64,000 bases of DNA, taken from positions 32,001-96,000 of the forward strand of contig CAZFHY010000010.1 of the NCBI GenBank assembly GCA_964519305.1, read 5' to 3'. A program made the translations under genes and the position numbers. The notes below the pieces were generated by a model. It saw only the letters and a program-made list of their open reading frames with translations, searched no databases and was not told the DNA's origin. This document shows positions 1 through 42,583 of the stretch, piece by piece (within the stretch, counting starts at the first letter, position 1; every line of letters begins with the position of its first letter). The DNA is from Candidatus Undinarchaeota archaeon. GTDB lineage: Archaea > SpSt-1190 > JASMDC01.

Positions 1-3000
1 AGTACAGGTACCAGAACGGTCGCTGGCAGATCGAGATATCCGCCCCGCCCGATTATGCCTTGAAGTTCAGGGACATCACCGAAGAATGGCTCGAACAGAA
101 CGAAGGCAACGTGATGGGCGGTCATTTTAAAGAGATCACCAAAGAGCTCGCTAAAAGGAACTATAAGGACGGAATGCAGTACCTCTGGGACCACATGCGC
201 AGTACAAAGGGATGGCTTGGAGTGGAACACTCCATCAAAATCCTCTCCGATGATGGAGATGTCAAATATGGTCATGATTCGGGGGATGACAAGTATGAGG
301 ATTTCAGGAATGGGATGCAGGGATCCATCGCCGAGAATCCCTGCGCGTTCGCCGATGTACGGATGCACGTCAACGGTGCGCCCACGGGCGATGACAAACG
401 ACTCTACTCCGTCGAGTTCTGCATCCTGAGAGGCAAGGACGGAGATGGAAAGGAGTACGAGGACCGGAACGATGATAAACCCGGATACAGCGAGGAAGCG
501 TGCATCGACTATCTCAAGAAGCACGGTCTGCGTGACAAGGACGGTAAGAAGATCGGGGTCGATGAACGCGGGGAGGGTCACCAGCTCACTCTCGTCTATG
601 CAGATAGCGGCCAGATGTTCTCCACCGGTGCGCTGGGCGTGGACGTGTACGGTGAGAACGGTCAGAACAAGGTCATCGAATCCCTAGATCCGGCCGTGTC
701 ATCGTACGCACCCGATTACAAACCCACATATGCCTCAACGCTCCAGGAGGAGCAGGTCACTGGTGCCGACCAGGCCGCTGAGCAGGTGGAGGTCGCATCG
801 GACTGGCAGCAGGATGCCATCGATGCCACTAGCGACGAGGTGGAGCGGGCTGCTGAAGAGGCCGCGAAGGAAGCGGCCGAGGCCGCGGAAAAGAAGGCTG
901 AAGGTCTACAGCCACTCGACTTCGCCGCGCTCAAGTGCCCTGACAGCGGTGAATACAGCAACGCTGGGGAGTTCAACGCAGAGTACGCCTCCATGGCAAA
1001 AGAGCTCGCCGTCTTCTATGCCCAAGTCACCGGATACCTCGAGGTCCTGCGCACGTCGGTGAAGACGCAGCAGGACAATTGTCACGAGGCCATCGACTCG
1101 TTCACTGGACAGTACGCCGTCAGCTGCGAGATTAAGGACCTCAAGGACAAGGAGGCAAAGGACCTGGAGCTTACTGTAGTGGAGGACGCTTTTGATCCGG
1201 GGATCTGTTCCAAGGCGGTCGTCGATCATTGCCTGAAGGACGAGCTGTGGAAATGCAGCAAGGACCTCAGCGATGAGACCGCGGGCAAGGTTACGACCTG
1301 CGAGATGTGCACGGTCGAGCCGTGCTGTATCGGAACGGACTGTAAGGCATGCGCTAAGGCGGAGAACAACGAGTACGAGAAGCTACCGAAATGCACGGAA
1401 TCTTCAGGTGTCATCTGCCGTCAGCAGTTCGAATGCTGCACGAACACAGGTACAGACATACTCACTGAAGCCTTCCTCCCCCAAGAGGAATGTGCCTTCA
1501 TGGGAGGGTTTTGGGGTAACTGCCCTCCCGAGCTCGAATTCACGAATGATGAGGAGTTCGGAAGGTACGGGAGCTATCTGTGCTCACAACATTACCTGTC
1601 AACGACTGCCGCGTGCAAGTGTACAAAGAGCGGTATAAAGAAGGCCGAGTGCATCGTTATGCGGTACAATATGATCTGGGACGAAACAGATCGTAATGAC
1701 AAGGTCATCCCCGAGGAAGAGAAGTCCGATACAACAGAAGAGGAATCATCTTCCGAGGAAAGCACTGAGACCACGGAAGAGGAGACGGCTACCGAGGAAG
1801 GGGATGAGGCCACAGAAGAGGGAACGACCGACGAGGAGGATGCCGGACCGACGGACGAGGAGAAGGAGCAGAAGAAGACCCTCGATACTGAACCCTTCGG
1901 CCTCGCCAGTTGCCAACCAAAAGGATCGCTGGAGCTCGGTGATGGCGCAGAGCCGTACATCAAGACCGAGAAAGGAAGACACACCGTAGTCGACCCCATC
2001 AAGGTCGACGCGTGCCAGCGTCAGGTCGCTGACCTCAAGGACCTGTGCATCCTGGACGGAGCGAGCATATTGTTCGACGACGATAAGAAGCGCGGTCCCA
2101 CCGAGGTGCTTGCTAAGCTCGATACTCTCATCACCACCATGAACGGGTATGTCGCGGGTATGAAGGACTCGGCGCAAGTGGCCGAGGAGATGAAGGAACA
2201 GGGCGACGAGACGCTCGAGAACATCGACTCCGATGCCATCGATCCGGAGCTGGTCGACAAGTTCGAGGAGCTGCTGACAAGGGACGCTGACAAGGTCCAG
2301 GACACGCAGAAGGACCTCAAGAACGTAATCACATTCGTCAAGGGCCAGCTGATGGCCGACCTCTCGAACATCCATTTCTTCAAGCACGTACCGTCCTTCG
2401 CCGTCGTGGCGTCAAAGGATTGGCGGTACGAAGCACGATGCAATCCGTTCCAGAAACCTCACTTCGACGAGAAGTGCGAACCGATCGGGGACGGTGAAGA
2501 GACGGAAGAAGGGACTGAGGACGAACAGCCCGAGGATACTACCGATGAGGGCGGCGAAGAAGGCAGTGAGGAGAAGGTCGATCCATTCAACGAGGAGGTA
2601 ACATGCGAGGGACCCGGAGCGCCATCTCCGTTCTGGTGCCCGCTCAAAGAGCGTGGCGGATGCAACGCCACACAAATAACGGTCGTAGTCGCTGATACGA
2701 ACCCTGATTCCTGGGACGACCGCAAGCTGCTCGACCTACTTAGGAACGTGAATCCCGATGACCTTTTCATCAATGAGGAGAAGTGCTCCGAGTACAACAC
2801 CGAGGACGGTGGCGGTACGGCCGTCGATGAAGGCGATGTGCCGCCCGTCGTCGACACCGGCGGGACACCCTGGTACGGTTCCATCACACCGGGCGAGGAC
2901 ATCCCCGAAACGGAGAAGGACCCGCTCGTACAGTGCTGCCAGCGCATCTTCGGTATCGAGGATTCCGCCTGGGCAGGCGGTGGTATCGTCGACACGGCCC

Positions 3001-6000
3001 GGAGCTGGCTTGGTGTACCCTATGTGTTCGGCGGTACCAGCCGCTCGGGGTGCGACTGCTCAGGCCTTACTATGAACGTGCTCAAGGAGAACGGCATCAA
3101 TGTGCCGCGGACCGCGTCCCAGCAGTACTACGCCTGCGAGAGCAACGGTGGTACGTACGTGGACTGGGGCGACCTCCAGGCGGGCGATATCGTCTTCTTC
3201 GAGAACACCTACAAGCCCGGGGTCTCCCATGTGGGCGTCTATGCGGGCGACGACCGGATGATCCATGCGCCCAAACCGGGCGACGTGGTCAAGATCGTCC
3301 AGCTCTCCAACTCGTACTTCCGCGAGCACTGGACCGGTGGATGTCGGTACGTGGAGGGCGGTGCAAGCTACGAGGCGCTCGACATCGACTGGTGCGAGGA
3401 CGACACTGAAGAGCTGTGCTGCCAGGGCCCTGGCCTAGAGCTGGAAAAGAAGATCACCGAGCAGGAGTGCGGGCTCACGTGCGAGGAGCTGTGCGAGGGC
3501 AAGTACGAGCGCCATTCGTACAAGTATCTCGTCTGTCGCCATAAGTGCGGAGCCCGTGACGAGCAGTGCTCGGAAAAGCCCGAGGAGACGGCCTGCGAGG
3601 TCGATGGGATGGACGGTCTGTGCTGCGATGAGAAGTGCATGGTCCACGCCCTCATGTGCGCGGGCCGGGTGGAGGCATGCGTCGGCTCCCTGAGCCTCGA
3701 TCCCTGCACCTATGACGACGAGGACGGCGTGTGCTGCGGCGGGCGCTGTCTCACCGGCGAGAAGGACTGCAGCTCGTGCAAGGACATCACCGTGTGGGCC
3801 CTCAATCCCGAGACCGGTCTGTGCGATAAGTTCACCAATACCTGTGACGTACCCGACGGTTGGATCGACTGCGAGAACTTCGGGTGCGACACCGACGAGG
3901 ACGAGTTCCTCGACTGCTCCAAGGACGGCGAACTGGGCATGTGCTGCGGGAAGAAGTGCGCTCTCAACGCTGAGGACTGTGTGCCCGATGACAGCTGCAA
4001 GGGCATGGGCGACGGCGTCCCGTGCTATGCCAAGGACGTGCCTGGTGTGTGCTGCGGCGAGAAGTGCGCCGTGGGCGGTACCAGGTGCGGCGAGTGCGTA
4101 CAAGCGACGACCCATGCCAAGGACCCGGAAACGGACACGTGCAAGGAGTTCCCGACACCTTGCGACGTACCGTACGGGTACACTGCCTGTGAAGGGTACG
4201 GTTGTACCGGCCTCATCGATGGCGCCGCATGCACCAAGGATGATGAGCGCGGTATCTGCTGCGGCGACGGGTGCGTTGTGGATGCCACCGGATGCGTACA
4301 GGATACAACCCCCTGCGAAGGAAAGGCAGAAGGTGGAGCATGCGAGTCCGATGGTCAGAACGGCGTGTGCTGCGACGGTCATTGCGCGCTCGGCGGCTCA
4401 ATCTGTGGCGTCTGCGCCCAGGTCATCACATTCGCCCTCGATAAGACAACAGAGCAGTGCGAGCAGTACCCGACACCATGCGACGTGCCCAAGGGAGCAC
4501 CCCCGTGCATCGTCGAGAGCTGCCTCTCCGAATGTCAGAACGAGTTCCCTGAGAACCCGTCCCTGGCCCGCAACTGTCGTGAACTGTGCGAGACCATGGA
4601 CATCTCCTGTGAGGAGCGATGCATCATGGACTTCAACGGACGCGACGAGCGCCTTGCGTGTATCGAGCGCTGTCCCGGGGTGATCACCGAACAGATGTCC
4701 GAGAGCCTCAGATGGTGCGAGGAGGACTGCATCGACTTCAACAACGGAGAACCAGCGCCCACCCTGCTATGCTTCAGGCTGTGCCGTGCGATCCACCCGC
4801 GGATCCACGTGACCTTCGCCCTGCTCCGCGACGGTCAGGAGGCCGAGTCGTTCTTCACCGGCGAGAACCCACGAATGCGGGTCGAGGTGGAGAACCGTGG
4901 TAGTGCAGGATTCGCGGGCGACATGAACGTCGCGCTGCGGGTGCTCGACGCCTGCGAATGCGAGCCCTGTCCGGACGACTACATGTGCAGCTGCGACTGC
5001 GAAGAGGAGGAGCGCCAGGTGTTCTCGCTCGATAACATCATGCTCGCCCCCGGCGAGAAGGCGCGGTACCTCACCGACCCGGTCCGCCTGCAGAGCGAGC
5101 TGGCCGGTACGACGGTCCAGCCGGTGGCTACTGTGAGCGATACCTACGACCAGGTCATAGGCAAGCCTCTTGGCAGTTTCTACGGTGTGAGCGAGGCCGA
5201 GAAGATGGCGGTTAACGATGCGTGGTTCCTGGTCAACGACCGTGAGCGCGCGACCGCCGCCTATCCCGGCGAGTATGCCGTGGGTTTCGTGGTGTTCTCC
5301 ACTGATCAGGTGCCCGTGACGCTCGAACTGTTCATGGTCGGATGGGACGGAGCTCCCATCGAGGGCATGGACACGTCCCAGACCATCACCTGGCCCACAA
5401 GGATGGAGACGTTCACCACAGGCGAGCTAGATGTCGATACAGCCCACGTGGACTTCGTCATCCGCCTCGGGTACAAGGTCACGGACGCATCGGGTACGGT
5501 CCTGGCCGAAGGCACTCTCGACGAGCAGGGCAGACCGCCCGGCCTGTGCGAGGGACGCGACCTCACCACGTGGTGCGAGGGGTTGCATGAGCGCGTGAAG
5601 CTGTCCTATCCCGACGCTTACCTTGAAGTGAAACGGCCCATGCTCGACGTGGCGGACGCTGCCTTCATCGATAACGACGGGCTCGCGGTGAACCGGCTGT
5701 CCGGGAGCGATTCGGTCCGGGCCAAGCTCGAGCTGACCAACCTTGCAGCACAGACCTTCGAGGGGACCGTGATCGTGAAGGTCGTCGGTACTGACGGCAT
5801 GGCTGTCCCCGAGTCGGTCGTGGCACTGGACATCGACCGTGGTCTGGAGGGCGCTGGCTCGTCCATCGAGGTTGAGTCCGGGTTCGTATGGCCTAAGCCG
5901 GGCTCGTCCTTCCGCATCTGGATCACGGCAACGGACCGTGATGGTAGGATCTGGCTCGACCAGATAGTCCCGACCGCGCTCTTCCCGTTCGCCGAGCTGA

Positions 6001-6188
6001 GCGTGACCCAGGACGCCACCGAGGGACTGGTGCGGAACACGATCTTCACCACTATCATCCACGAGGGGTGCCTAGCCAGCATCCGGTGCGACGATTGCCT
6101 GACGACATGCGAGCTGCGTGTGGACCGGGCGAGGTGCACGGTCACTCGTGAGCGTTGTGACTGCGAGTGCATCATGGAGGCAATATAG
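1..6188 (+). CDS. Giant Cys-rich acidic surface protein, paralogue 1, with intact NlpC/P60 peptidoglycan peptidase domain; 5'-partial
   Basis: Frame is open from nt 3 (YRYQNGRWQIEIS...) so the start lies left of the window; >2040 aa. NlpC/P60 at ~2982-3350: WLGVPYVFGG..DCSG..PRTASQQ..GDIVFF..SHVGVY..MIHA. Cys-rich repeats and C-terminal Cys module shared with the next two ORFs. Confidence 0.9.
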   Translation, partial: YRYQNGRWQIEISAPPDYALKFRDITEEWLEQNEGNVMGGHFKEITKELAKRNYKDGMQYLWDHMRSTKGWLGVEHSIKILSDDGDVKYGHDSGDDKYEDFRNGMQGSIAENPCAFADVRMHVNGAPTGDDKRLYSVEFCILRGKDGDGKEYEDRNDDKPGYSEEACIDYLKKHGLRDKDGKKIGVDERGEGHQLTLVYADSGQMFSTGALGVDVYGENGQNKVIESLDPAVSSYAPDYKPTYASTLQEEQVTGADQAAEQVEVASDWQQDAIDATSDEVERAAEEAAKEAAEAAEKKAEGLQPLDFAALKCPDSGEYSNAGEFNAEYASMAKELAVFYAQVTGYLEVLRTSVKTQQDNCHEAIDSFTGQYAVSCEIKDLKDKEAKDLELTVVEDAFDPGICSKAVVDHCLKDELWKCSKDLSDETAGKVTTCEMCTVEPCCIGTDCKACAKAENNEYEKLPKCTESSGVICRQQFECCTNTGTDILTEAFLPQEECAFMGGFWGNCPPELEFTNDEEFGRYGSYLCSQHYLSTTAACKCTKSGIKKAECIVMRYNMIWDETDRNDKVIPEEEKSDTTEEESSSEESTETTEEETATEEGDEATEEGTTDEEDAGPTDEEKEQKKTLDTEPFGLASCQPKGSLELGDGAEPYIKTEKGRHTVVDPIKVDACQRQVADLKDLCILDGASILFDDDKKRGPTEVLAKLDTLITTMNGYVAGMKDSAQVAEEMKEQGDETLENIDSDAIDPELVDKFEELLTRDADKVQDTQKDLKNVITFVKGQLMADLSNIHFFKHVPSFAVVASKDWRYEARCNPFQKPHFDEKCEPIGDGEETEEGTEDEQPEDTTDEGGEEGSEEKVDPFNEEVTCEGPGAPSPFWCPLKERGGCNATQITVVVADTNPDSWDDRKLLDLLRNVNPDDLFINEEKCSEYNTEDGGGTAVDEGDVPPVVDTGGTPWYGSITPGEDIPETEKDPLVQCCQRIFGIEDSAWAGGGIVDTARSWLGVPYVFGGTSRSGCDCSGLTMNVLKENGINVPRTASQQYYACESNGGTYVDWGDLQAGDIVFFENTYKPGVSHVGVYAGDDRMIHAPKPGDVVKIVQLSNSYFREHWTGGCRYVEGGASYEALDIDWCEDDTEELCCQGPGLELEKKITEQECGLTCEELCEGKYERHSYKYLVCRHKCGARDEQCSEKPEETACEVDGMDGLCCDEKCMVHALMCAGRVEACVGSLSLDPCTYDDEDGVCCGGRCLTGEKDCSSCKDITVWALNPETGLCDKFTNTCDVPDGWIDCENFGCDTDEDEFLDCSKDGELGMCCGKKCALNAEDCVPDDSCKGMGDGVPCYAKDVPGVCCGEKCAVGGTRCGECVQATTHAKDPETDTCKEFPTPCDVPYGYTACEGYGCTGLIDGAACTKDDERGICCGDGCVVDATGCVQDTTPCEGKAEGGACESDGQNGVCCDGHCALGGSICGVCAQVITFALDKTTEQCEQYPTPCDVPKGAPPCIVESCLSECQNEFPENPSLARNCRELCETMDISCEERCIMDFNGRDERLACIERCPGVITEQMSESLRWCEEDCIDFNNGEPAPTLLCFRLCRAIHPRIHVTFALLRDGQEAESFFTGENPRMRVEVENRGSAGFAGDMNVALRVLDACECEPCPDDYMCSCDCEEEERQVFSLDNIMLAPGEKARYLTDPVRLQSELAGTTVQPVATVSDTYDQVIGKPLGSFYGVSEAEKMAVNDAWFLVNDRERATAAYPGEYAVGFVVFSTDQVPVTLELFMVGWDGAPIEGMDTSQTITWPTRMETFTTGELDVDTAHVDFVIRLGYKVTDASGTVLAEGTLDEQGRPPGLCEGRDLTTWCEGLHERVKLSYPDAYLEVKRPMLDVADAAFIDNDGLAVNRLSGSDSVRAKLELTNLAAQTFEGTVIVKVVGTDGMAVPESVVALDIDRGLEGAGSSIEVESGFVWPKPGSSFRIWITATDRDGRIWLDQIVPTALFPFAELSVTQDATEGLVRNTIFTTIIHEGCLASIRCDDCLTTCELRVDRARCTVTRERCDCECIMEAI

Positions 6189-6216
6189 GATAGACCATAA
6201 GAGAGGTCCATGAGAT

Positions 6217-9200
6217 ATGGTAAGGGGGTTCCTGAGCATCGGGAGGATGGCCGCGGCTCTAGCTGTAGCCGTGGCCTTACTCCTGTCCGGGATCCCGACG
6301 GTCGCTGCTGATGGTGACGAGAATCCCTGCGCAGGCCTCGACATTATGGCGGGCACCATGAACCTCCCCCACGGTGGCGGAACGGACCTCAACCACGTGG
6401 CGTTCTGCATCCCCGCGGGGACCGAGGGCGCGGCAGGCTGCGCCGACCATCTCAAGGACGAGTACGGTCTCGAGCCCGTGGAGGGGACCGATAACCAGTT
6501 CGAGTACACGGGCGAGGAGGAGCTGGACCCGGAGGCGGTCCTCGCTGAGCCCGGTGGCGAGCGAGGGCAACTCGTAATGTCCTCATCGGGCCTCGATGTG
6601 CGCATCAACGGTGCGCCCAGCATCACCGAGGACGGCATCCGCGCCTGGCTGTCGGAAAAGAACCCGGCGCTGCTGGAGGCCGATCCTGACCTCCCATTGA
6701 CGTTCTACGAGACGAGCATCGAGTATAACATCGATCCGGCCATCGCCCTATCCTTCTTCCAGATGGAGTCGAGCTACGGGAAGGCCGGTAGGGCCACCTC
6801 CACGCTCTCCATCGGCAACATCAGGGAGTATGGCGACGGTCCTGCCATCGACGGCTTCAGGGCCTACGACACGTGGTCCGACGGCGTGGAGGACTACTAC
6901 CAGCTCCTCTCCGGCGACGTCTACGTGTCCAGTGGGCTGACCACCGTCGAGCAGATCGTCCCGAAGTACGCGCCGGCGGCGGACAATAATGTGCCCACAC
7001 AGTACATAAACAGTGTACGCGCCACGGCCGAGGCGATCCAGCAGTACGAGGAGGTCATGGGCCCTGATGGCGGCATTTCCACCGGCAGTGGCGGCGGGGC
7101 GCGCGGCTGCTACCCCCACAGGCCCACACCACGACGGTTGCCCGACTGCCCGAAGATGGACAACTTCGACAACGTCGTAGACTACCTCACCGAGATCGAG
7201 GCCATGTTCGACGATATGCTCAAGTTCTACGAACCGCTGGTCAACGAGCTGAAGCACTTCAGGTCCGTGCTATTCGCCGAGCAGGCGAAATGTCACGGTG
7301 CCATCAACGACTTCGCCTCCCGCTACGGTGTTCCGTGCGAGATGGACGCGTTCAGCGCGTCCGAAGAGGGCGAAGAAGAAGAGAGTGAACCTGAGGCGGA
7401 AGAGGACGCTGGTGGCAGTGAAGCGGAGCCCGAGGAGGACACGTACGAGCCGAGCACGGGGATCGAGGGCGACCTGCACCCCGAGGAGGAGGTCACCCTG
7501 TCCGTCTACGGGCCCGAGGTAAGGGACGCCCATCCGCTGGAAGCGCTTGTCCTCAGCGATGGCTTCGGCCCGGCCCTGTGCGCCGCTGCCGTGAAGGACA
7601 ACTGCCTTGCCGACGACGCATGGCAGTGCCGGAAGGGCGAGGGCCACCTCCCCGCGGTCGTCGGGACTTGCAGCATGTGCGTGGCCGAGGGCTGCTGGGC
7701 CGGTACCGGGTGCGGCACGTGCGGCGAGGAGGACGACAGCGATGACAGCGAGGGTGAGAAGAAGCTCACACCAGTGTATACGGACGGGAGCTCAGGCACC
7801 TATCCACGATCTGAGGACGAGGCCCTCACCGGCGGCACGGACCCATTCGGTGTCAAGGAATGCAAGGGCGAAGGGCTGGCCGAGGGGGAGAGGACCTACG
7901 TAGTCATAGAGCGCGGGGTGCATGCGAACGTAGAGGCGCTCGAGCTCCAGCGATGCCAGCAGGCAGCGATCGACGTCAAGGACCTGTGCATGCTCGATGG
8001 TTCAGGCGACTTCCTGGGCGATGGCGGTGTCCACGGCCCCACCGATGTGCTCGTTGGACTTGACGACCTCATCAGGGACATCGAGTCGTTCGTTTTCGAC
8101 CTCGGTAAACTGACCGATGAGGTCCACAAGATGGCCGAGGAGACCAAGAAGGACCTGGACGGCAAGGACGCGATAAACTGGCCCACCGCAGGTTCCCAGA
8201 CATCTGGATACGGGCCTAGGGGCGCGCTATGTGCCGACGCGAACCTGTGCAAACCCCACTTCCACCACGGCCTCGACATCTCGCAGGCGGGCACGGTACC
8301 GGTCATCGCCGCGGCCGACGGCAAGGTCTCGGGCCTGGTCAAGGAGTCGTCAGGCAGCTGCTACGGCAACGCGGTGTTCCTGGACCATGGCAACAACCTC
8401 CAGACGCGGTACGGCCACCTCCGATCCCTCGAGGTGAGCATGAGCCAGGTGGTCGACCAGGGCCAGCGGATCGGGCTCCAGGGCAACACGGGCTGTTCGA
8501 CAGGGCAGCACCTGCACTTCGAGATACGGGTCAACGGCCAGTCCGTTGACCCGCTTGAAGTGCTCGAGGGCAAGAGCAACGTCTTCCTGCTCTTCCACGA
8601 GGCGGAGATCTTCTCGACCATGTCGAAGAACGCCGAGAACATCAAACCGACGCAGGAGGCGCTCAAGGCGTTCGTCACGTTCCTCCGCGAGTACACTAAT
8701 GACGTGTGCGGTGCGGGCGGGACGAGCGAGGGCGACGTGCCATCGTTCCTTGTGGGTGCGTCCGATGAATGGGCGAATGGCGAGAGTTGCGATGTATCCT
8801 TCCCACCGTTGTTCGATGGGGACGACTGCACCTCCACGCAGGACGCCGACACCGAGGAGGACCCGCCCGAGGAAGAGGAGGAGGAAGCAGGCACGAAACC
8901 GGAGGAGAGCGGCGAGCACCTGGACGACTGCCCTTCAGAGAAGCATCGTGGTGGGTGCATCGCTACGACCACGACCACCTCGGTCAGTGATTCGAACAGC
9001 GACGCGTTGGACGAATCGATCGAGATCCTGCTCTCACTCGCCGGCTGGTACCCGGACGAACTGTTCCTCGACGATGAAAAGTGCTTCGGGTACAACACAG
9101 AGGGCGGGAATCCTAGTGTGTCCGGATCCGCGTCACCCGGCGGCAGCCCAGATCCCGGCAGCGAGAGCTTCGGTACCGACGAGGGTGCGGAGGACGACCT

Positions 9201-12200
9201 GCTCCCCGGTCAGGACGCCGAGGAGGGTGACGACGATCCACTAGTCCAGTGCTGCCAGCGTCTCTTCAACACCGAGACCGTGACGGGGACAGGGGGCGCC
9301 ATCGCCTACACGGCGCACAGCTGGCTGGGCGTTGCATACGCGTTGGGCGGCTCCGACCGCGTCGGCGTCGACGGTCCAGGTCTCGTGCTGGGCGTCATGC
9401 GCGAGAACGGCTTCGAGCTCCCCCGGACGGCCGCGGCACAGCTGGGATCTTGCGAGCAGCTGGGCGGTATGCGGATCGCCTGGAACGTGCTCCGACCCGG
9501 CGATCTTGTATTCCTCAAGGACGATGGATCGACGGACGTGTCCCACACCGGAGTATTCGTGGGCGATGACCTCATCGTCAACGCACCGGGTCCCGAGGGC
9601 GTTGTGCGGCTTGACAAGCTGTCCACCTTGCGCCACCGGTGGTCAGGCGGATGTCGGATCGGTTCAAGCGCATCGTCAGATGCAATTGTCGTCAGCTGGT
9701 GCCAGGAGGAGGTAGATGAACTGTGCTGTCGCGGTCCCGGCCTCGAGCTCGAACTGGCCATCTCCGAGGAGGCCTGTGGTATGTCCTGCGACGAGCTGTG
9801 CGACAGGAAGCATACACGCCACACGGTAGCCCACACGCTCTGCCGTCATGCATGCGGTGCACGGGACGAGCAGTGCGACGGCAAGACCGACGAGAGCGCG
9901 TGCGAGGTCGATAGCGTCGAGGGCCTGTGCTGCGAGGAGAAGTGCATGGTTCACGCATTGATGTGCGCGTCTCGTGTCGAGGTCTGTATCGATATAAGAG
10001 ACGGGGAGCAGTGCTCCTTTGGTGGTGATGACGGTATTTGTTGCGGTGGTCGCTGCCTCACCGGCGGCGGTGCGTGCACGCCCTGCGCAGTGGGCCCGAC
10101 ATGGGCCAAGGACCCCGCGAACGGGGAGTGCGAGCAGTTCGAGAGCGTCTGCGACGTCCCGACGGGACGGACCGATTGTGGCCCCTGTTCCGAGGTGGAC
10201 GCATTCGGCAAGGACCCGGCGACCGGGAAGTGCGAGCGGTTCGACTCCCCATGCGACGTCCCCTACGGCTGGTCGGAGTGCGAGGGACACGGATGCGCAT
10301 CTCTTGACGACGGTGCCGTGTGCTCCATCGATGGCACGGCGGGCATCTGCTGCGGTGGCGGCTGCACTGTCGGGGCCACATCTTGCATGGACGATCCAAC
10401 CGTATGTACAGACGTGGGCGAGGGCGAGGCCTGTGCAACCGACTCAGCGGGCGTATGCTGCAACGAACGCTGCGCGGTAGGTGCCGTCGCGTGCGGCGAA
10501 TGCCCCCGGGCGGTCACCCATGCCTACGATCCATCGAGGGGCCAGTGCGTGCGATACGACACGCCGTGCGATGTACCCAAGGGATGGCCGCCTTGCATCG
10601 CGTCCTCCTGCCTCACTGAGTGCCAGAACGCCCACCCGTCCAACCCTGCCCTTGCCCATGCCTGCCGGGAGCAGTGCGAGGGCGCTGACATATCCTGCGA
10701 GGAGCGGTGCCTGGCGGCGAGCGACGACACGGACGAGCGCACCAGCTGCATCGGGCAGTGCTCGAACGACGTCACCAGCAGCATGCCCGAGACGCTCAGG
10801 TACTGCGAGACTGGCTGCCTTAGTGATGACGACGCCCAGACTGGCCTCTGCATGAGCATGTGCCGGGCGACGCATCCGCATGTGAACATCGAGCTCGCTA
10901 TCGTCAGGGGAGAGCAGGAGGCCTCGTCCCTGTTCACGGGCGAGCGACCACGCCTTCGCATCATCGCCGAGAACCGCGGTTCGCGTGAGTTCGCCGGGAG
11001 CATCGAGGCGGTGCTGCGCGAGTTGTCCGCCTGCACGTGCCCGGCCTGTCCGTCAGGGGATGTATGCCACTGCGGCTGCGACACAGGAGAGCGGCCCGTG
11101 GTGCGCTTCGACGACGTGATGCTCGGCGTCGGGAAGAAGACCACCTATCTCTCCGATCCGTTCATTCTACCCGCGACACTGGCAGGTACGACGCTGCAGC
11201 CGGCCGCGACCCTCCGGGATGCCAGTGGTAGGACCGTGGGAGCACCACGCGGTCCTTTCTACGGTGTGGCTGCACCGGGACCCGTCTCGATCGATGACGC
11301 CCAGTTCACCGTCGACGGGAGGGAGCGGGCCACCACCGCCGCCCCCGGAAGCACGGCAACGGCCTCGCTCATCCTCACCACCGCCCGCGCGCCCACCAGC
11401 GTCACGGTATCCGTGGTCACTGCTGTCGGCGTCCCGGTCGAGGGCACCGAACGCATCCACGAGCTTCCCTTCCCCGTCCAGAACAAAGCCCTTGCCACGG
11501 GCCCGCTGACCGTCACCAGCGCTCAAGCTGGATCGCTGTTCCGCATCAGTTACCGAATCGAGTCCGGTGGTGTCGAGCTGGCCGCTGGAGTGCTCGATGA
11601 GCAGGGCAGACCGCCCGGTATGTGCGACGGTCGGGAGCTCACCACTGAGTGCGAGCAACTCCACCTGCAGGCCCATCGTTCGTACCCCCACGCGTTCCTG
11701 GAGGTGCTCCGACCTAAACTCGTGGCGACCGACGCGTCGTTCATGGACGCGGACGGCCGCGAGGCCATACTTATGCCCGCTGGGAAGACAGTCCGGGCCA
11801 TGGTCGAACTGGCGAACCCGTCTGGACGTCCCTTCACAGGCACGGTGACCGTGTCTGTGACGCAGGAGGACGGCTCTACTGCCCTTGGTTCAGATCAGAC
11901 CATCGAGGTCGAGCGTGGGCTCGATGGATCGTTGTCACGGTCGTTCGAGACAGCGAGCTTCCAGACCACTGCAGGCCGTTCGTACCGCATCCGCGTCCTT
12001 GGGAAGGACCGCGACGGTGCGGTCTGGCTCGATGAGATCGTACAAACTGTCCTCTTCCCCATGGCCGGGCTCAACGTTCCGGAGAGCGCTGTCAGCGGCA
12101 TCAGCCGCAACGACGTGTTCACATCCGTTGACCACGAGGACTGCCGTGCCAAGGTAACCTGCGTGCAATGCCTCTCGACCTGCGAGCTGCGTGTCGAGCG

Positions 12201-12264
12201 GACGCGCTGCACCGTCACACCTTTTAACTGTGACTGCCATTGCACCATGGAGGCGATCTCATGA
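6217..12264 (+). CDS. Giant Cys-rich secreted protein, paralogue 2: GH73-like glucosaminidase + M23 peptidase + degenerate NlpC/P60
   Basis: Signal peptide (MAAALAVAVALLLSGIPTVAA). Glucosaminidase-like ~6610-7050 (IDPAIALSFFQMESSYG..GNIR..FRAYDTW..KYAP). M23 ~8176-8568 (HHGLD, YGN, YGHL, GNTGCSTGQHLHFE). NlpC/P60 ~9301-9660 with DGPG instead of DCSG. Confidence 0.9.
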   Translation: MVRGFLSIGRMAAALAVAVALLLSGIPTVAADGDENPCAGLDIMAGTMNLPHGGGTDLNHVAFCIPAGTEGAAGCADHLKDEYGLEPVEGTDNQFEYTGEEELDPEAVLAEPGGERGQLVMSSSGLDVRINGAPSITEDGIRAWLSEKNPALLEADPDLPLTFYETSIEYNIDPAIALSFFQMESSYGKAGRATSTLSIGNIREYGDGPAIDGFRAYDTWSDGVEDYYQLLSGDVYVSSGLTTVEQIVPKYAPAADNNVPTQYINSVRATAEAIQQYEEVMGPDGGISTGSGGGARGCYPHRPTPRRLPDCPKMDNFDNVVDYLTEIEAMFDDMLKFYEPLVNELKHFRSVLFAEQAKCHGAINDFASRYGVPCEMDAFSASEEGEEEESEPEAEEDAGGSEAEPEEDTYEPSTGIEGDLHPEEEVTLSVYGPEVRDAHPLEALVLSDGFGPALCAAAVKDNCLADDAWQCRKGEGHLPAVVGTCSMCVAEGCWAGTGCGTCGEEDDSDDSEGEKKLTPVYTDGSSGTYPRSEDEALTGGTDPFGVKECKGEGLAEGERTYVVIERGVHANVEALELQRCQQAAIDVKDLCMLDGSGDFLGDGGVHGPTDVLVGLDDLIRDIESFVFDLGKLTDEVHKMAEETKKDLDGKDAINWPTAGSQTSGYGPRGALCADANLCKPHFHHGLDISQAGTVPVIAAADGKVSGLVKESSGSCYGNAVFLDHGNNLQTRYGHLRSLEVSMSQVVDQGQRIGLQGNTGCSTGQHLHFEIRVNGQSVDPLEVLEGKSNVFLLFHEAEIFSTMSKNAENIKPTQEALKAFVTFLREYTNDVCGAGGTSEGDVPSFLVGASDEWANGESCDVSFPPLFDGDDCTSTQDADTEEDPPEEEEEEAGTKPEESGEHLDDCPSEKHRGGCIATTTTTSVSDSNSDALDESIEILLSLAGWYPDELFLDDEKCFGYNTEGGNPSVSGSASPGGSPDPGSESFGTDEGAEDDLLPGQDAEEGDDDPLVQCCQRLFNTETVTGTGGAIAYTAHSWLGVAYALGGSDRVGVDGPGLVLGVMRENGFELPRTAAAQLGSCEQLGGMRIAWNVLRPGDLVFLKDDGSTDVSHTGVFVGDDLIVNAPGPEGVVRLDKLSTLRHRWSGGCRIGSSASSDAIVVSWCQEEVDELCCRGPGLELELAISEEACGMSCDELCDRKHTRHTVAHTLCRHACGARDEQCDGKTDESACEVDSVEGLCCEEKCMVHALMCASRVEVCIDIRDGEQCSFGGDDGICCGGRCLTGGGACTPCAVGPTWAKDPANGECEQFESVCDVPTGRTDCGPCSEVDAFGKDPATGKCERFDSPCDVPYGWSECEGHGCASLDDGAVCSIDGTAGICCGGGCTVGATSCMDDPTVCTDVGEGEACATDSAGVCCNERCAVGAVACGECPRAVTHAYDPSRGQCVRYDTPCDVPKGWPPCIASSCLTECQNAHPSNPALAHACREQCEGADISCEERCLAASDDTDERTSCIGQCSNDVTSSMPETLRYCETGCLSDDDAQTGLCMSMCRATHPHVNIELAIVRGEQEASSLFTGERPRLRIIAENRGSREFAGSIEAVLRELSACTCPACPSGDVCHCGCDTGERPVVRFDDVMLGVGKKTTYLSDPFILPATLAGTTLQPAATLRDASGRTVGAPRGPFYGVAAPGPVSIDDAQFTVDGRERATTAAPGSTATASLILTTARAPTSVTVSVVTAVGVPVEGTERIHELPFPVQNKALATGPLTVTSAQAGSLFRISYRIESGGVELAAGVLDEQGRPPGMCDGRELTTECEQLHLQAHRSYPHAFLEVLRPKLVATDASFMDADGREAILMPAGKTVRAMVELANPSGRPFTGTVTVSVTQEDGSTALGSDQTIEVERGLDGSLSRSFETASFQTTAGRSYRIRVLGKDRDGAVWLDEIVQTVLFPMAGLNVPESAVSGISRNDVFTSVDHEDCRAKVTCVQCLSTCELRVERTRCTVTPFNCDCHCTMEAIS

Positions 12265-15200
12265 GGTCGAGGGTGCTCGCTATCCTTTGTGTACTGGCAC
12301 TAGCCCTTGCTCTCGCCAGGCCCACGGTGAGCGTGTTCGTCAACGGTGGCCAGATCCACTCATCCTCCAATGACGGGAGCGTTGCTGCCGCAAACGCTGA
12401 CGCACCTGTCACGGTAAAGTGCACCGGGAGCGACTCCCAGGAGAGCCACATCGATATGTACATCGATGACTACTCATCGGGCCAGTTCATCTGGGGCGAT
12501 GCGTGGAACAGCGTTGTCGATGTCACCTACGACGTGGAGGGCACATACTCACTGCGCTGTCAGGGCAGGGTCGACTGCGGCGCCTCGAACATGGGCCCCT
12601 CCTGTCGCACCTACATCACTGTCACAGTGCCCGTTGGAGCAGCGACACCTACACCCGGTCCTGGCGGGCCGGGAGGTCCCGGCGGCCCTGGTGGTCCTTC
12701 AGGTCCCTCAGGTCCCCTCCCCGAGGGATGCATCGAGCCGGACCACGAACGCTACTGTGACGCATACGACCGGCTGTTCTCCCCCGACAACATCCGCCAG
12801 TACGACGCATCGATCAGGTCCAACGACGGTCTTATGCCACTGGTCGTGAACGGTGACGTGTACCCGTGCTACGAGGGTTGCAGCGACGGGAAGTGCTCCG
12901 GCGGTGACGGCACGGTGGTGTACGGCTCCGGCGTAGGGAGCCATGACCGGGCCAAGGCTCTCGTGCTGGGCGCTGAGCTGGGGATGCCTGTCGTCGAGCA
13001 CACCGGCGCGGTCCCTGGCGGCAATCTGGTGCTCCTGGGCTCGAGCACGTCCAACTCGGTGCTCGATGGTGTGGAGGACGGGATGCGTGTGCGGTACGAC
13101 CAGACCACAAACAAGGTGTTCGTGGGCAGCGAGGAGCTGGACTTCACCGCGGGCGAGCTGGCCGCGCGGTACGACGCGCCATTCATCGTGGCCTTCGAGG
13201 AGCAGGGCGGACGGTTCATCGTGGCGCTGGCCGGCAACGACCAGGCGGGCACCGCGAACGCTGCCAGCGAGTTCCAGAAGAACCTGTGCGAACCCACGTT
13301 CCGGTCCACCGTGTACGGCCTGCTGAAGGGAAGCGGCCGACCCGAGCCGGTCAAGGTGGACGATGGTGGTCAGACCATCGGCGAACGCTTCTGCCGTGAG
13401 CGGGAGGACGGCGAGGCGGGCGAGGTCCACGGATACTCACCGACGGTCGACTGGACCCACACCGACACGGACCCGACACCGCTGGGCGTGCTCGACACGG
13501 GTCTCATCGCCTGTCCCGAAGGCTGGTTCGACAACACGGTCGACTTCCGCACGGACGTGCTAACCACGCTCGACAATCTCCGCGACCTGTACAAGGTGCT
13601 CGGAGCCCACCTGGAAACGCTAGAGGACGCTCTTGACCAGCAGAAGGACCACTGTGCTTCGGCCCTGGGCACTCTGGGTACATTCCAGAACCCCGGACTG
13701 GAGGACGTGGACCTGAGCGACGCCTGCGACGTCGCACCTTGGGACGAGGAGACCGTGGCTACGTCCATGGTCCCCGAGGAGTGCCACCTCCCCAGCCCCG
13801 CCCGGCCCCGGACCTACTACTCCACCTCCTACCAGCGCGTCGTCGACGTCAAGGACGTGTGCACGCTCGACGGCTCGGGCACGCTCCTGGGCGACGAGAC
13901 CACTCACGGCCCCACACGCGTACTGGACAAGGTCACGGTCATGCGCAGCTTCGTGGACCACTTCCTCACCAGTTACCCCGATCTCCGTTCCACGATCAGC
14001 TTGCTGATCGACAACGAGCTCACCGAGATATCTCTTAGCGGCGAGGAGCCCGCTAACGACGCCGTCCCGCTGGTCGAGCGCCTGTCAGCCATCCTCATAG
14101 AGATGTCCCGCGATCCCGACACTGACATGGGTGCTGAGGAGTTCAAGGCCATGCTCGCTGACCTCATCCGGATGCTCCGGACATCGTCCACTGTCGAGGA
14201 CGTCTCGACACTAGGACACGTGTACCCCGGCCTCATGCTCTCGGACAGATGCGGTCCGGGCGAGGGTGACATCACCGACGACAACACCGATGAGTGGTCG
14301 GTACGTCAGCAGCAGGCAGTCCAGGCATTGGCCGCCATCGAAGCGGAGGACGTATTCATCTCGGCCGAAGAGTGCTTCGAGTACGCGTCGCGCTCGGAGG
14401 CCGGCTGCTCACGTATCTGTCGGGAGGAGTGCGGAGCGGATGCGGGCCATTGCCAGCGTCACCTGGGTATGTGCGTATGCCACAATCCAGACGGCACCCG
14501 TACAGCGACCACCCACTCCTGCACCGGGCCCATCATCGAGGAGGATGCCAAGCACATCATCGCCTGCTGTCTCAACGACCTCGGCGGTGTCGCAGCGGTC
14601 CCCCCTGCGCTAGGCGAGGAGGGCTCCTGCTCGGGACCGGACGTGCCAGGATTGACCTTCGACATCTGCTCCGACGAGTCGGGATACCTGTGCTGCATAC
14701 CTGGCGGGCTCGAGGCGGAAGAACGGGCCGACGACACCTGCACCATGGAATGCGGGCCCATGTGCGCCCTTATCCATCCCGACGACGAGGACGCTCGCAT
14801 CGCGTGCGTGGGCACGTGCACCTCGGATGCGGGATGTACGGACCGGGACGGCGATACCTGCGTGGTGGGCGCCAGCGAGGGTGCGTGCTGCGGAGGTACA
14901 TGCGTGGCCGGAGCTTCGGGCTGCGATGCCGGCTCAGGGTCAGGCTGCGCCGGGCTGAGTGACGGCGAGGCCTGTACTAGCGCAGTGGGCGTGTGCTGTG
15001 GAGGCTCGTGCGCCCTGGACGCCACGGACTGCGGTAGTCTGAGCACCTGCAACGATATGTGCCGGGACCTCGTGGCCATCGACCAGGTGTCCGCGTGCAC
15101 CACGGTGTGCGTGGAGATGGACGTGTCCTGCGAGGAGGGGTGCGGCGCGTTCCCCGATCCGGGTCCGTGCCTGCGCAAGTGCGGTAACGGCGCCGACGAG

Positions 15201-16757
15201 GACGGTGATGGCCGAACGGACGAGGACCCCATTGACGGCCGGGACAACGACGGCGACGGGAGGATGGACGAGGACGGTCCCGGTGAGAGCGTACCATCGT
15301 CACTGGTCACCTGCCAGCGCGAGTGTCTGGACGGGGACGACGCCGTACGGTGTCTGCGTGAGTGCAAGCTATCCATGCCCCGCGTCGACGTCCGCCTGGC
15401 CATCCTTCGTGGACTTGCCGAACAGCGCACATTCTACCACGGCGAGCGTGTCCGCCTCTCGCTCGAGGTGCGCAACTCAGGGTTCCGCGCCTTCGCTGGA
15501 GCTGCCGACCTCGCACTCCATCTCCTGCCATCATGCTCCTGCCCGGAGTGCCCCCAGGGCTTCGTATGCCCATGCTCGTGCACCGAGGAACGACGGTTCG
15601 CAGGCTCGCTCTCGAGCATCGTGCTACCGCCGGGCAGCGACTACCACGCACTCACCGGAGAGATCGCCCTCAACGGCGACCTGACGGTGACGGCCGTCCA
15701 ACCGGGCGCCGTACTGCGCCGCGCAGGGGGCGAGGTAGTGCTCGACGCACGGGGCCCCATCTCGTTCATGGTGGTGCCCGACATGCTCACCGTGGCCGAC
15801 GCCTACTTCCTCCGCGACGCGGAAAGGACGACCGAGGGCTACACCGGCGAGCAGGTCGTCGGGGCTGTGACCGTGACCAGCCATACCTATCCGGCGACGG
15901 TGGAGGTGTTCCTCGCCGACGTGCAGAACCAGATGGTGGACGGCTCGGCAAAGGTCCACGAGATCGCGGGGCCTGTTCAGGAGCTCGAGCTCACAACAGA
16001 GACGCTCACACTGGCTCACGAGCACGCCAATGCGGTGTTCTCCATCGGGGTGGAGGTGCGCGACGGTGAAGGTGCCGTGGTCGGCCGCCAGGTGCTCCCC
16101 GGCCAGGGGTACGCTACCAGCCGGTGCAAAGGCCGCGTGATGAACACGTGGTGCGAAGGCGAGCGGTCCCGGGTCCGTCTGGGATATCCCGACGCGAGCC
16201 TGGAAGTGCGGCCCTTGGAGCTCGAGATAGTGGACGCCGCCTTCACAGACGCTACGAACAATCCCCTGGACGAGATGTACACCGCCGGCGAGGCCCGGGC
16301 CACGCTGACGGTGCGCAACACGGTCCCCAAGTCCTTCGTGGGCACAGTGCTCGTCCGCGCCGTGAGCAAGGAGGGTCTGGTAGTGGGCGGGAGCGAGGAG
16401 CGACGCACGATCGCCCTTGGCCGTGGAGACACGTCCGAGCTCACAGGCCAGATGTTCCCGACGACCCTGGGCGAGAATTACCGACTTTGGGTGGTCGCCG
16501 AGCACCAGGACGGAACGGTGTGGACCGACGCCCTGGTCCCGTCCAATGTCTTTATGTACGCTGAGCTCGGTGTGCTGGACCCGACAGCGACCGATGGTGA
16601 GCGCACTGACATCTACACCACTGTGTCACAGGACCCGTGCGGTATGAGCATCTACTGTGAGAACTGTCTCGTGGGATGTGAACTACGTGTGGACCGGGAG
16701 CGGTGTAAGGTCTCAAAGCGCTTCTGCGCCTGCGAGTGCGCCTCCCTGCCGCTCTAG
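12261..16757 (+). CDS. Giant Cys-rich secreted protein, paralogue 3: S-layer-like domain and DxDGDG repeats, no hydrolase
   Basis: ATG 12261 overlaps the upstream TGA (ATGA), with GGAGG before it; signal peptide MRSRVLAILCVLALALALA. Pro/Gly linker. NLVLLGS...ALAGNDQAGTANAA resembles archaeal S-layer C-terminal domains. Same scaffold motifs as paralogues 1 and 2. Confidence 0.88.
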   Translation: MRSRVLAILCVLALALALARPTVSVFVNGGQIHSSSNDGSVAAANADAPVTVKCTGSDSQESHIDMYIDDYSSGQFIWGDAWNSVVDVTYDVEGTYSLRCQGRVDCGASNMGPSCRTYITVTVPVGAATPTPGPGGPGGPGGPGGPSGPSGPLPEGCIEPDHERYCDAYDRLFSPDNIRQYDASIRSNDGLMPLVVNGDVYPCYEGCSDGKCSGGDGTVVYGSGVGSHDRAKALVLGAELGMPVVEHTGAVPGGNLVLLGSSTSNSVLDGVEDGMRVRYDQTTNKVFVGSEELDFTAGELAARYDAPFIVAFEEQGGRFIVALAGNDQAGTANAASEFQKNLCEPTFRSTVYGLLKGSGRPEPVKVDDGGQTIGERFCREREDGEAGEVHGYSPTVDWTHTDTDPTPLGVLDTGLIACPEGWFDNTVDFRTDVLTTLDNLRDLYKVLGAHLETLEDALDQQKDHCASALGTLGTFQNPGLEDVDLSDACDVAPWDEETVATSMVPEECHLPSPARPRTYYSTSYQRVVDVKDVCTLDGSGTLLGDETTHGPTRVLDKVTVMRSFVDHFLTSYPDLRSTISLLIDNELTEISLSGEEPANDAVPLVERLSAILIEMSRDPDTDMGAEEFKAMLADLIRMLRTSSTVEDVSTLGHVYPGLMLSDRCGPGEGDITDDNTDEWSVRQQQAVQALAAIEAEDVFISAEECFEYASRSEAGCSRICREECGADAGHCQRHLGMCVCHNPDGTRTATTHSCTGPIIEEDAKHIIACCLNDLGGVAAVPPALGEEGSCSGPDVPGLTFDICSDESGYLCCIPGGLEAEERADDTCTMECGPMCALIHPDDEDARIACVGTCTSDAGCTDRDGDTCVVGASEGACCGGTCVAGASGCDAGSGSGCAGLSDGEACTSAVGVCCGGSCALDATDCGSLSTCNDMCRDLVAIDQVSACTTVCVEMDVSCEEGCGAFPDPGPCLRKCGNGADEDGDGRTDEDPIDGRDNDGDGRMDEDGPGESVPSSLVTCQRECLDGDDAVRCLRECKLSMPRVDVRLAILRGLAEQRTFYHGERVRLSLEVRNSGFRAFAGAADLALHLLPSCSCPECPQGFVCPCSCTEERRFAGSLSSIVLPPGSDYHALTGEIALNGDLTVTAVQPGAVLRRAGGEVVLDARGPISFMVVPDMLTVADAYFLRDAERTTEGYTGEQVVGAVTVTSHTYPATVEVFLADVQNQMVDGSAKVHEIAGPVQELELTTETLTLAHEHANAVFSIGVEVRDGEGAVVGRQVLPGQGYATSRCKGRVMNTWCEGERSRVRLGYPDASLEVRPLELEIVDAAFTDATNNPLDEMYTAGEARATLTVRNTVPKSFVGTVLVRAVSKEGLVVGGSEERRTIALGRGDTSELTGQMFPTTLGENYRLWVVAEHQDGTVWTDALVPSNVFMYAELGVLDPTATDGERTDIYTTVSQDPCGMSIYCENCLVGCELRVDRERCKVSKRFCACECASLPL
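12645..12722 (+). repeat. Pro/Gly low-complexity linker (TPTPGPGGPGGPGGPSGPSGPLP)
   Basis: GGP/SGP triplet repeats in frame. Confidence 0.8.
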
Positions 16758-23080: not shown

Positions 23081-23237
23081 CGTATAATCTAATGCGCTCA
23101 AGGGTTATATTCCCTTTGATGGGGAAGGGCCATCGGTCCCGGTGATAGGGCACGAAGCGCTCACATCCGACAGCGCTCTTCTATGGGCACGACCATATGC
23201 ACAATGATCTCGGCGGTATCACTGGCCAGGAATGTGT

Positions 23238-23260
23238 GCGGGGGGCGAATCACCCCCCGC
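23238..23260 (-). terminator. GC-rich hairpin just downstream of tRNA-Phe
   Basis: GCGGGGGG-CGAATCA-CCCCCCGC, perfect 8-bp stem, 4 nt from the tRNA 3' end. Confidence 0.5.
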
Positions 23261-23264
23261 TGAG

Positions 23265-23378
23265 TGGGGCCACCGGGGTTCGAACCCGGGACACCCGGAT
23301 CTCAAATCCTTATCTTGGTATCGGAAGATCCAAGTCAGAACTTCAGTCCGGCGCTCTCCCAGACTGAGCTATGGCCCC
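23265..23378 (-). tRNA. tRNA-Phe(GAA) with 40-nt intron at canonical position 37/38 (intron 23301-23340)
   Basis: GGGGCCATAGCTCAGTCTGGGAGAGCGCCGGACTGAAG-[intron]-ATCCGGGTGTCCCGGGTTCGAACCCCGGTGGCCCCA; anticodon stem CCGGA/TCCGG; no encoded CCA. Confidence 0.95.
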
Positions 23379-23408
23379 TTGCTTCCTTTCCGGAGTGCTG
23401 CGGTTTCC

Positions 23409-23416
23409 TTTATATA
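23409..23416. promoter_or_regulatory. TATA box between divergent tRNA-Phe and radical SAM gene
   Basis: TTTATATA, ~30 nt from the tRNA 5' end and ~22 nt from GTG 23438. Confidence 0.7.
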
Positions 23417-23437
23417 CATTTCTTTTGCCATCGGTCC

Positions 23438-24370: not shown

Positions 24371-24411
24371 GAAGGTGAGCCGCACCCACACCAAGCTGAG
24401 GTGTAGATCGT

Positions 24412-26959: not shown

Positions 26960-28366
<1,407 letters not shown>

Positions 28367-42550: not shown

Positions 42551-42574
42551 TGCGAGGTTCACAATGATAAGTTG

Positions 42575-42583
42575 TTATAAAAA
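42575..42583. promoter_or_regulatory. TATA element in the divergent rnfC/apbE gap
   Basis: TTATAAAAA ~25 nt from the rnfC ATG. Confidence 0.6.

Follow-up and report, generated by a model that had tools for sequence, protein, structure and literature searches.

A multigene family of giant cysteine-rich proteins bearing murein-hydrolase-type modules in a large-genome undinarchaeon

A tandem gene trio with a common scaffold

The 64,000-nucleotide (nt) stretch analysed here, hereafter the window, comes from an uncultured marine archaeon, a Candidatus Undinarchaeota (assembly GCA_964519305.1, contig CAZFHY010000010.1) and opens with three forward-strand genes, P1, P2 and P3, which code for members of a family of giant, predicted secreted proteins. 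It corresponds to C10:32001-96000, where C-numbers denote contigs of the same genome. An initial annotation, made from the sequence of the window, had described three tandem genes on one strand, with the second and third coupled through an ATGA overlap; the list of open reading frames (ORFs) and the reading of the junctions agree in bearing this out, except that P1 is clipped by the window edge. P1 covers window positions 1-6188 (ORF 3-6188, open at its 5' end), and its true start lies at C10:31553, 448 nt upstream of window base 1, with the first 150 codons outside the window; once this upstream contig sequence is read, the protein reaches 2211 amino acids (aa) and displays a hydrophobic signal at its N-terminus. 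It ends in a TAG codon at 6186-6188 and is followed, after a 28-nt gap with GAGAGG ahead of the start, by the ATG of P2 at 6217. P2 (6217-12264, 2015 aa) carries three wall-enzyme-type modules, and its stop overlaps the start of P3 as ATGA at 12261-12264, indicative of translational coupling. P3 (12261-16757, within a frame open from 12240) has no recognised enzyme domain and is 1498 aa long because the ATG overlapping the P2 stop was taken as its start.

All three translations contain the same series of motifs, namely DxKDxCxLDG..GPTxVL, (D/E)(L/V)Fxxx(E/D)(E/K)C...CC, xxN(R/S)Gxx(x)FAG, CxGRxxxTxCE, DAxFxD and a terminal block with eight cysteines, and pairwise tblastn comparisons among them gave E-values of 0 to 1e-90, well past chance. 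The collinear scaffold that the initial annotation had read from these motifs is thus upheld; the trio is only part of the family, which comprises 24 genes in this genome, and a single Cys-rich scaffold with many invariant Cys columns can be aligned over all 24 paralogues. Members are built of an N-terminal export signal, a long helical stalk, Cys-rich knots or repeats and a C-terminal block of about 560 aa, which is the most conserved part. The paralogue alignment places this C-terminal module at 4476-6185 in P1, 10552-12261 in P2 and 15045-16754 in P3, each on the forward strand.

An AlphaFold2 model of the C-terminal module, computed from a 19-row alignment (mean predicted local distance difference test score, pLDDT, 85.4; predicted TM-score, pTM, 0.53), resolves a Cys-rich helical segment, three immunoglobulin (Ig)-like beta-sandwiches, of which the first is CARDB/DUF11-like, and a small beta module holding the eight cysteines, in agreement with the three beta-sandwich-like blocks and 8-Cys end foreseen from the sequence. 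The model of the shortest member (1067 aa, pLDDT 75.9) displays long helices at residues 63-111 and 155-283, mixed Cys-rich elements and the same C-terminal block. Foldseek searches with the C-terminal module against the PDB, and with the 1067-aa minimal member against the PDB and viral models, recovered generic beta-sandwich arrays only (adhesins, macroglobulin domains, integrin legs and DUF11/FN3 proteins), with query-normalised TM-scores of 0.07-0.24 (0.14-0.24 for the C-terminal module). Neither Pfam nor NCBIfam holds a named family for the scaffold outside the enzyme inserts, as the initial annotation had supposed, and no sequence relatives were found in the PDB for residues 1-480 of P3 or 1-816 of P1. 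The scaffold is a new structural family, in which a helical stalk and Cys knots are joined to three beta-sandwiches and a terminal 8-Cys module. The conserved cysteines may form either disulfides or metal-binding clusters, with both readings equally open. An acidic stretch of the DxDxDG type (DGDGRxDED...) lies inside the Cys-rich helical segment of P3 (residues ~925-960, window ~15030-15140) and also in the member C12_99628; by eye this insert looks like the Ca-binding thrombospondin-type-3 repeats.

The enzyme modules are inserted in P1 and P2. P1 carries an NlpC/P60 (C40) endopeptidase module at 3012-3341 (C10:35012-35341), which scores 88.9 bits against PF00877 (the Pfam cut-offs are 23 bits for NlpC/P60, 28.7 for M23 and 30.2 for Glucosaminidase/GH73). 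Its best sequence match in the PDB is 3h41 (E 1e-22), with which its DCSG, SHVG and IHAP motifs align. The catalytic triad of NlpC/P60 enzymes is Cys-His-His(/polar), and in P1 the Cys/His/His version is kept. P2 has an M23 metallopeptidase module at 8260-8553 (C10:40260-40553; PF01551, 97.6 bits), the translation of which contains HHGLD and HLH, the metal-ligand motifs of this family being HxxxD and HxH. It is followed by a second NlpC/P60 module at 9328-9624, which scores above the cut-off at 43.9 bits; however, an alignment of the four copies in the genome indicates that Gly stands in for the catalytic Cys (DCSG to DGPG) and Asn for His as the third residue of the triad. With the triad lost, this module is a pseudo-enzyme and possibly a binding module.

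The third module of P2, at 6703-7008, is GH73-like (glucosaminidase); it scores 22.4 bits against PF01832 (E 2e-4), below the cut-off. It has an Atlas score of 0.95, with 28 of 30 Atlas matches falling in PF01832 clusters, and eight stand-alone homologues of 179-299 aa, seven at 45-51% identity and one at 35%; three of these eight carry PF01832 themselves. The module has a Glu in a 'MESS' context, a candidate for the catalytic Glu, and the region has no sequence relative in the PDB. P3 yielded no Pfam match at E<=0.01 and no NCBIfam match, and NCBIfam returned for the trio only below-threshold matches to the same enzyme domains. The domain assignments of the initial annotation thus survive for the intact NlpC/P60 of P1, for the M23 and dead NlpC/P60 of P2 and for a P3 devoid of hydrolases; the GH73-like part of P2 is the one that misses its Pfam cut-off.

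A 24-member family in an archaeal genome

The 24 family genes are spread over 13 contigs, several in tandem arrays of two or three and others single, with open-frame lengths of 1090-3139 aa; together they amount to about 48,300 codons and occupy about 4% of the 3.63-Mb genome. Every one of them has a single hydrophobic segment at the N-terminus and nothing else that convincingly looks like a membrane span, and their composition is marked by 3.0-9.8% Cys and 12-19% Asp+Glu. Pfam finds M23 in four members, NlpC/P60 in four, and Lectin_C, FG-GAP, TSP3_bac, SLT (weak), Glucosaminidase (weak) and Bac_A_amyl_C (weak, E 4.2e-4) in one member each. Combining per-member scans with motif reading, wall-enzyme modules are present in seven of the 24. 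Besides P1 and P2, these are C6_32512 (NlpC/P60 with Cys/His/His intact), C12_99628 (M23 plus an NlpC/P60 with Cys/His/His intact), C19_1049 (M23 and SLT) and two consecutive genes, C10_99461 (C10:99461-105124; M23 and an SLT-like module) and, following it, C10_95501 (C10:95501-99460; 1319 aa, SLT-like), of which the 3' end forms the minus-strand stretch at window 63501-64000 and the remainder continues beyond the window. The SLT-like module is thereby common to three members.

Pfam matches over the whole genome fall almost entirely on this family: four of five for M23, all four for NlpC/P60 and the only one for SLT (9 of 10 in total). The sole M23 match off the giant scaffold lies at C1:398613-398900 on the minus strand, in a 211-aa ORF. 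The initial annotation had the enzymes occupying defined slots, a notion that does not hold across the paralogues. Measured against four scaffold landmarks, M23 precedes the DLKDxC landmark in three members and follows it in P2; likewise, the SLT-like module sits near the N-terminus in two members and within the C-terminal block in C19_1049. Thus, the same type of enzyme is found at differing positions of the scaffold. The family also has a divergent wing at C7:59253-78565, where three tandem members with 205-207 Cys each (9.4-9.8% Cys) retain only the last third of the C-terminal module.

The organism is a single archaeon, with a contig that is neither of bacterial origin nor a chimera. The sole small-subunit (SSU) rRNA scores 1508 bits with the archaeal model vs 1157 bits with the bacterial one; there is a single RpoB; Sigma70_r2 has no match in the 3.63 Mb, with a control search positive in 10 of 10 bacteria; and four TFB genes lie on C1, C3, C9 and C14, the first three of which also hold family members. 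The contig of P1 also holds genes for Topoisomerase VI B and A, Thg1, KsgA and DUF655, all 5-11 kb upstream of this gene. The assembly is 99.83% complete with 4.29% contamination, and its G+C is uniform over 42 contigs. These lines of evidence sustain the archaeal host assumed at the outset.

They also bear on the reading that the window is an artefact, a bacterial contig or a chimeric bin with ordinary autolysin-bearing bacterial surface proteins. It has in its favour the bacterial-type SecA gene and the Rnf genes of the window and the size of this genome, 3.63 Mb, alongside 3.8 Mb in a congener, vs 0.6-1.2 Mb in 15 other genomes of the same phylum. The SecA gene (48857-51322, minus strand) codes for a full-length bacterial-type SecA with the four SecA Pfam domains, a protein that, to our knowledge, is normally absent from Archaea; the stretch 38966-43625 holds the gene for an RnfD-like component of an Rnf/Nqr-type membrane complex (534 aa, 381 bits) together with small ORFs and an ApbE flavin transferase. 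However, the same SecA recurs at 92% identity in the congener, which is of similar size and has 22-25 matches to the C-terminal module; the 11 other SecA loci found were all bacterial, at 35-52% identity. Together with the lack of sigma-70, the single RpoB, the even G+C, the same-contig Topoisomerase VI and DUF655 genes, and the TFB genes on other family-bearing contigs, this makes the artefact extremely improbable, and the idea of a bacterial contig that SecA had raised was dropped on the sigma-70, RpoB, TFB and Topoisomerase VI evidence.

Genes for murein synthesis are missing: Mur_ligase_M, the penicillin-binding-protein (PBP) transpeptidase and SEDS each gave zero matches in the whole genome. 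Therefore, the hydrolases most likely act on foreign bacterial murein. We also considered the enzymes as autolysins, a role that is unlikely and was rejected, as these searches gave no sign of murein or pseudomurein synthesis.

Distribution, divergence and genomic neighbourhood

A profile of the C-terminal module was searched against 1.84 billion representative proteins, yielding 59 matches at E<=1e-3, of which 31 reach E<=1e-10 and 24 reach E<=1e-30. BLASTP found 30 of 38 retrieved representatives to be similar to a family member of this genome, 11 of them at 80% identity or more, four at 50-80% and 15 below 50%; one of the last 15 is the middle gene of the congener, and the others have a very different amino-acid composition. 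The remaining eight have only a DUF11/CARDB-like stretch in common with the family, or nothing detectable. Among 16 representatives chosen by eye for composition (including P0029, 82.5% identical to a member of this genome, and P0041, without BLASTP similarity to any), Pfam identified wall-enzyme-type domains in two: M23 with a C39-like domain in one and NlpC/P60 in the other.

Within the phylum, the module is present in two of 17 genomes, with 28 matches in this genome and 25 in the congener, and it was not found in the 15 small genomes (72-94% complete). A single-protein query likewise found it in two of 31 genomes. A degenerate DNA motif for HCHAQ...CVC returned five loci from species-representative genomes, of which only the two of the congener are genuine, the other three being bacterial and without similarity; in metagenome contigs it returned 10 loci, two of them genuine, on one contig and 92-94% identical to genes of this genome. 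A word-index protein search with the C-terminal module of P3 retrieved one protein only, labelled 'hypothetical protein'. Judged from these searches, the family is rare, much expanded in this genus and with few other carriers.

The congener holds the trio in the same gene order, and the frames are open in both species. P1 is 88.9% identical between them, with a ratio of nonsynonymous to synonymous substitution rates (dN/dS) of 0.11 over 1062 aa, and P3 is 88.1% identical with a dN/dS of 0.145; thus, the flanking genes are under ordinary purifying selection. The middle gene, P2, has only 49-55% identity to its counterpart, whereas its neighbours have 88-93%, and its dS is about twice theirs. 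With our query, the GH73-like module was found neither in the congener's middle gene nor elsewhere in that genome; the NlpC/P60 copy of that middle gene also has Gly at the Cys position. Hence, the middle gene, with its several enzymes, was either replaced or diverged much faster than its flanks.

A recurrent neighbour of the family is a pair of genes that we term X and Y. In the window they directly follow a family member on the minus strand: Y (60564-63494) codes for a 976-aa protein with a signal peptide and without Pfam or PDB sequence matches, and X (58741-60570) for a 609-aa protein with R-[GA]-Q and a hydrophobic N-terminus, resembling a type-IV-pilin signal. Genome-wide, Y is typically about 930 aa and X about 600 aa. 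We counted 20 adjacent pairs, with Y directly before X in all except two on C27 (X before Y), and such pairs adjoin family genes at eight of 15 family loci; none lies within 7 kb of the P1-P3 array. A class III signal consists of a basic residue, G/A and then a hydrophobic helix; by eye, 19 of 21 X copies have R-[GA]-Q followed by a hydrophobic stretch, and no pilin profile matches X. Its nearest Atlas neighbours (0.89-0.90), to be taken as a lead only, are hypothetical proteins of DPANN archaea. An X-like segment (C1:23089-24339) is fused within the family gene C1:22009-29964, linking the X family to the giant family.

A further family of large, very Cys-rich proteins adjoins four giant-family loci (downstream of 38532 on C6, upstream of 99628 on C12 and in the flanks on C3 and C24), one example having 193 Cys in 1483 aa with tandem repeats. 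Elsewhere in the window there are an M14 zinc carboxypeptidase (45581-46912, minus strand, 179 bits), which, speculatively, could trim peptides released from walls; a 575-aa FG-GAP repeat protein (54552-56279, plus strand) and a 468-aa Laminin_G_3/concanavalin-like protein (26960-28366, plus strand), both probably surface-binding; and a 547-aa WD40 repeat protein adjoining two radical-SAM proteins (21458-25434). No tRNA genes were found in the 64 kb.

Interpretation and relation to known systems

Taking as shown how the genes are laid out, that they form a conserved family, which domains and catalytic residues they hold, and that the host is an archaeon devoid of murein-synthesis genes, we lean modestly towards reading these proteins as modular exported lytic adhesins on a common chassis, a subset of which is armed with murein hydrolases aimed at bacterial walls. 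P1-P3 would then be an operon-like array of a lineage-specific multigene family of giant, acidic, Cys-rich proteins that would leave the cell and stay attached to its surface or within a fibre. The chassis bears varied heads and inserts: seven of the 24 have murein-cutting enzymes (M23, NlpC/P60, SLT-like, GH73-like), whereas lectin, FG-GAP or Ca-binding repeats are found in others. The scaffold and its non-catalytic modules, including the dead NlpC/P60 of P2, may bind the bacterial surface, while the active modules could make local cuts in glycan strands, cross-bridges and stem peptides in the service of antagonism, attachment or feeding. If the three proteins cooperate, P1 might be the arm with a peptidase, P2 the one with several enzymes and P3 the one for binding or structural support. 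The conserved C-terminal block may do the same job in every member, for example anchoring, sorting or assembly.

Several points weigh against this interpretation. The GH73 identity of the P2 module depends on a sub-threshold Pfam score and indirect evidence. No wall-binding domain (LysM, SH3, PG_binding) was detected in P1-P3 at a Pfam E<=0.01, nor any wall-binding Pfam family among the 24 members at E<=0.001. The 24 members have no recognisable anchor, be it a C-terminal membrane span or a sorting signal, and retention at the surface is therefore a guess. Domains of the M23 and NlpC/P60 families can also have substrates other than murein. The distant members P0024 and P0011 were not found in representative genomes. 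Finally, 17 of the 24 members have no hydrolase, and the primary role of the family is therefore something else, adhesion or structure, with wall cutting as an add-on. Killing, attachment to a partner and digestion of dead wall material are all compatible with the data, and predation or parasitism is one of several compatible lifestyles. A bolder form of the lytic-adhesin reading, which we regard as doubtful, is that this archaeon, whose genome is large for a DPANN-type lineage of otherwise tiny genomes, is bacteriolytic and perhaps predatory. It would deploy about two dozen rapidly diversifying lytic adhesins, displayed along with X-Y pairs, some twenty in number, of which X is pilin-like and Y Ig-like; between sister species, paralogue replacement and module swapping would follow the cell-wall types of the prey.

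Other explanations account for part of the same observations. It is possible, if on the unlikely side, that the organism scavenges, with surface-bound or released enzyme carriers that bind detrital particles and dead bacterial walls in anoxic sea water and digest them as a source of carbon and nitrogen, living bacteria not being the targets. This draws on the same domain evidence as the lytic-adhesin reading, and is further favoured by a 3.63-Mb genome that suits free-living heterotrophy better than obligate symbiosis, by binding modules of the lectin, FG-GAP and laminin-G types, which occur both in the family and beside it, and by the M14 carboxypeptidase of the window; against it, the fast replacement of P2 and the gain and loss of modules between congeners are more typical of a conflict with living targets. 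The large share of members without hydrolases, the Ig-like array fold, which is seen in adhesins and envelope proteins alike, and the exported pairs with one pilin-like protein at eight of 15 loci would instead suit a role in the archaeon's own envelope, where the family would build or remodel a surface layer, sheath or fibres and the hydrolase-type domains would have as substrate some polymer other than murein, made by the archaeon itself or by a partner archaeon. We find this improbable, given that four different murein-specific enzyme families on one scaffold are hard to explain without a murein substrate, that the lack of a Mur ligase makes pseudomurein unlikely too, and that the active-site residues are kept in canonical form.

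The initial annotation viewed the trio as a single hetero-oligomer, stabilised by disulfides, with which an archaeon that preys on or parasitises bacteria would breach their walls. The close or overlapping genes (the 28-nt gap and the ATGA overlap), the gene order kept in the congener, the complementary enzyme sets and the many invariant Cys columns all speak for such a complex. However, other family members occur singly or in other combinations, the middle gene has been exchanged or strongly diverged between conserved neighbours, which is not suggestive of a tightly co-adapted complex, and Cys clusters such as CxCxxC...CxCxC could bind metal instead; a dedicated three-protein machine is accordingly one of the less probable readings.

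Archaeal attack on bacteria is barely documented, the first experimental case, in 2025, being that of small secreted hydrolases of a haloarchaeon. Here, nearly every murein-cutting domain of one archaeon sits on the same unnamed family of giant, probably exported proteins, which takes up about 4% of the genome, and the difference from the sister species falls exactly in these modules. Should the enzymes prove active on sacculi, they would represent an organised, evolvable anti-bacterial surface system in abundant archaea of the anoxic ocean; should the predatory reading be true, this would be the first time that a genome lays out an archaeal apparatus dedicated to breaching walls. The scaffold could be given its own profile and tracked in metagenomes, and the domains are concrete objects for expression and assay.

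The family can be set against several known systems. Strings of beta-sandwiches form extended extracellular stalks, and are also seen in the Ig-like arrays of PrgB (8beg), antigen I/II C123 (6e3f), an ice-binding adhesin (5irb/4p99), A2ML1 (7q1y) and integrin alphaV (4g1e); the likeness of the family to these is generic, with query-normalised TM-scores of 0.08-0.24 and identities of 7-14%, and they have neither the Cys-rich helical segment nor the 8-Cys end module. The C-terminal domain (CTD) of type IX secretion and the archaeal PGF-CTERM are C-terminal sorting domains found on many unrelated cargo proteins. By analogy, the conserved C-terminal module on many large exported proteins of one organism might be comparable to these; unlike them, the shared part comprises about 560 aa plus the mid-scaffold and has no membrane span, and the family members are genuine paralogues along most of their sequence. 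The SPEARE proteins of Nanohaloarchaeum antarcticus and the giants of Omnitrophota such as Velamenicoccus archaeovorus, all from symbionts or predators with small cells, are long exported proteins that combine adhesion repeats with lytic or degradative domains and have been proposed to function in attachment to, or attack on, other cells. These are single giant genes, in contrast to the 24-member family on a common chassis described here, and no sequence relationship or specific fold relationship to them was seen.

In the accessible portions of the literature on large Undinarchaeota genomes, we found no description of the scaffold family. Murein-like lytic transglycosylases on large proteins have been reported from three DPANN metagenome-assembled genomes (MAGs) of oxygen-deficient zones, with parasitism discussed and genomes of about 4 Mb noted for one lineage (PMC10936187). 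Those proteins, like the ones described here, are large, archaeal, from anoxic marine water and equipped with a murein-lytic domain; as far as the available part of that report extends, they comprise one enzyme type in three MAGs, without a scaffold family, its expansion or combinations of M23, NlpC/P60 and GH73 (PMC10936187).

The closest functional parallel comes from the secreted, bactericidal archaeal M23 and GH73 proteins with PG_binding_1 domains, as presented in the accessible part of their description (PMC12352652): modular hydrolases occur in 175 of 3706 archaeal genomes, with Woldo (M23 plus two PG_binding_1), Danwoldo (GH73 plus two PG_binding_1) and Halogranum salarium as the examples, and their patchy distribution and domain shuffling have been read as an arms race. 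To the extent that this description allows a comparison, the two systems have in common M23- or GH73-type domains, a secretion signal, patchy distribution, shuffling and a host without murein of its own. However, the enzymes of that study are small, of two or three domains with a recognised wall-binding domain, whereas here the enzymes are inserts in Cys-rich scaffold proteins of 1300-2400 aa that belong to a 24-gene paralogous family without a recognised wall-binding domain; P1-P3 consequently fall outside the definition used there, of at least one catalytic plus at least one wall-binding domain (PMC12352652). Thus, archaeal wall hydrolases as such are already known, and what is new is the chassis, its expansion and the traffic of modules upon it.

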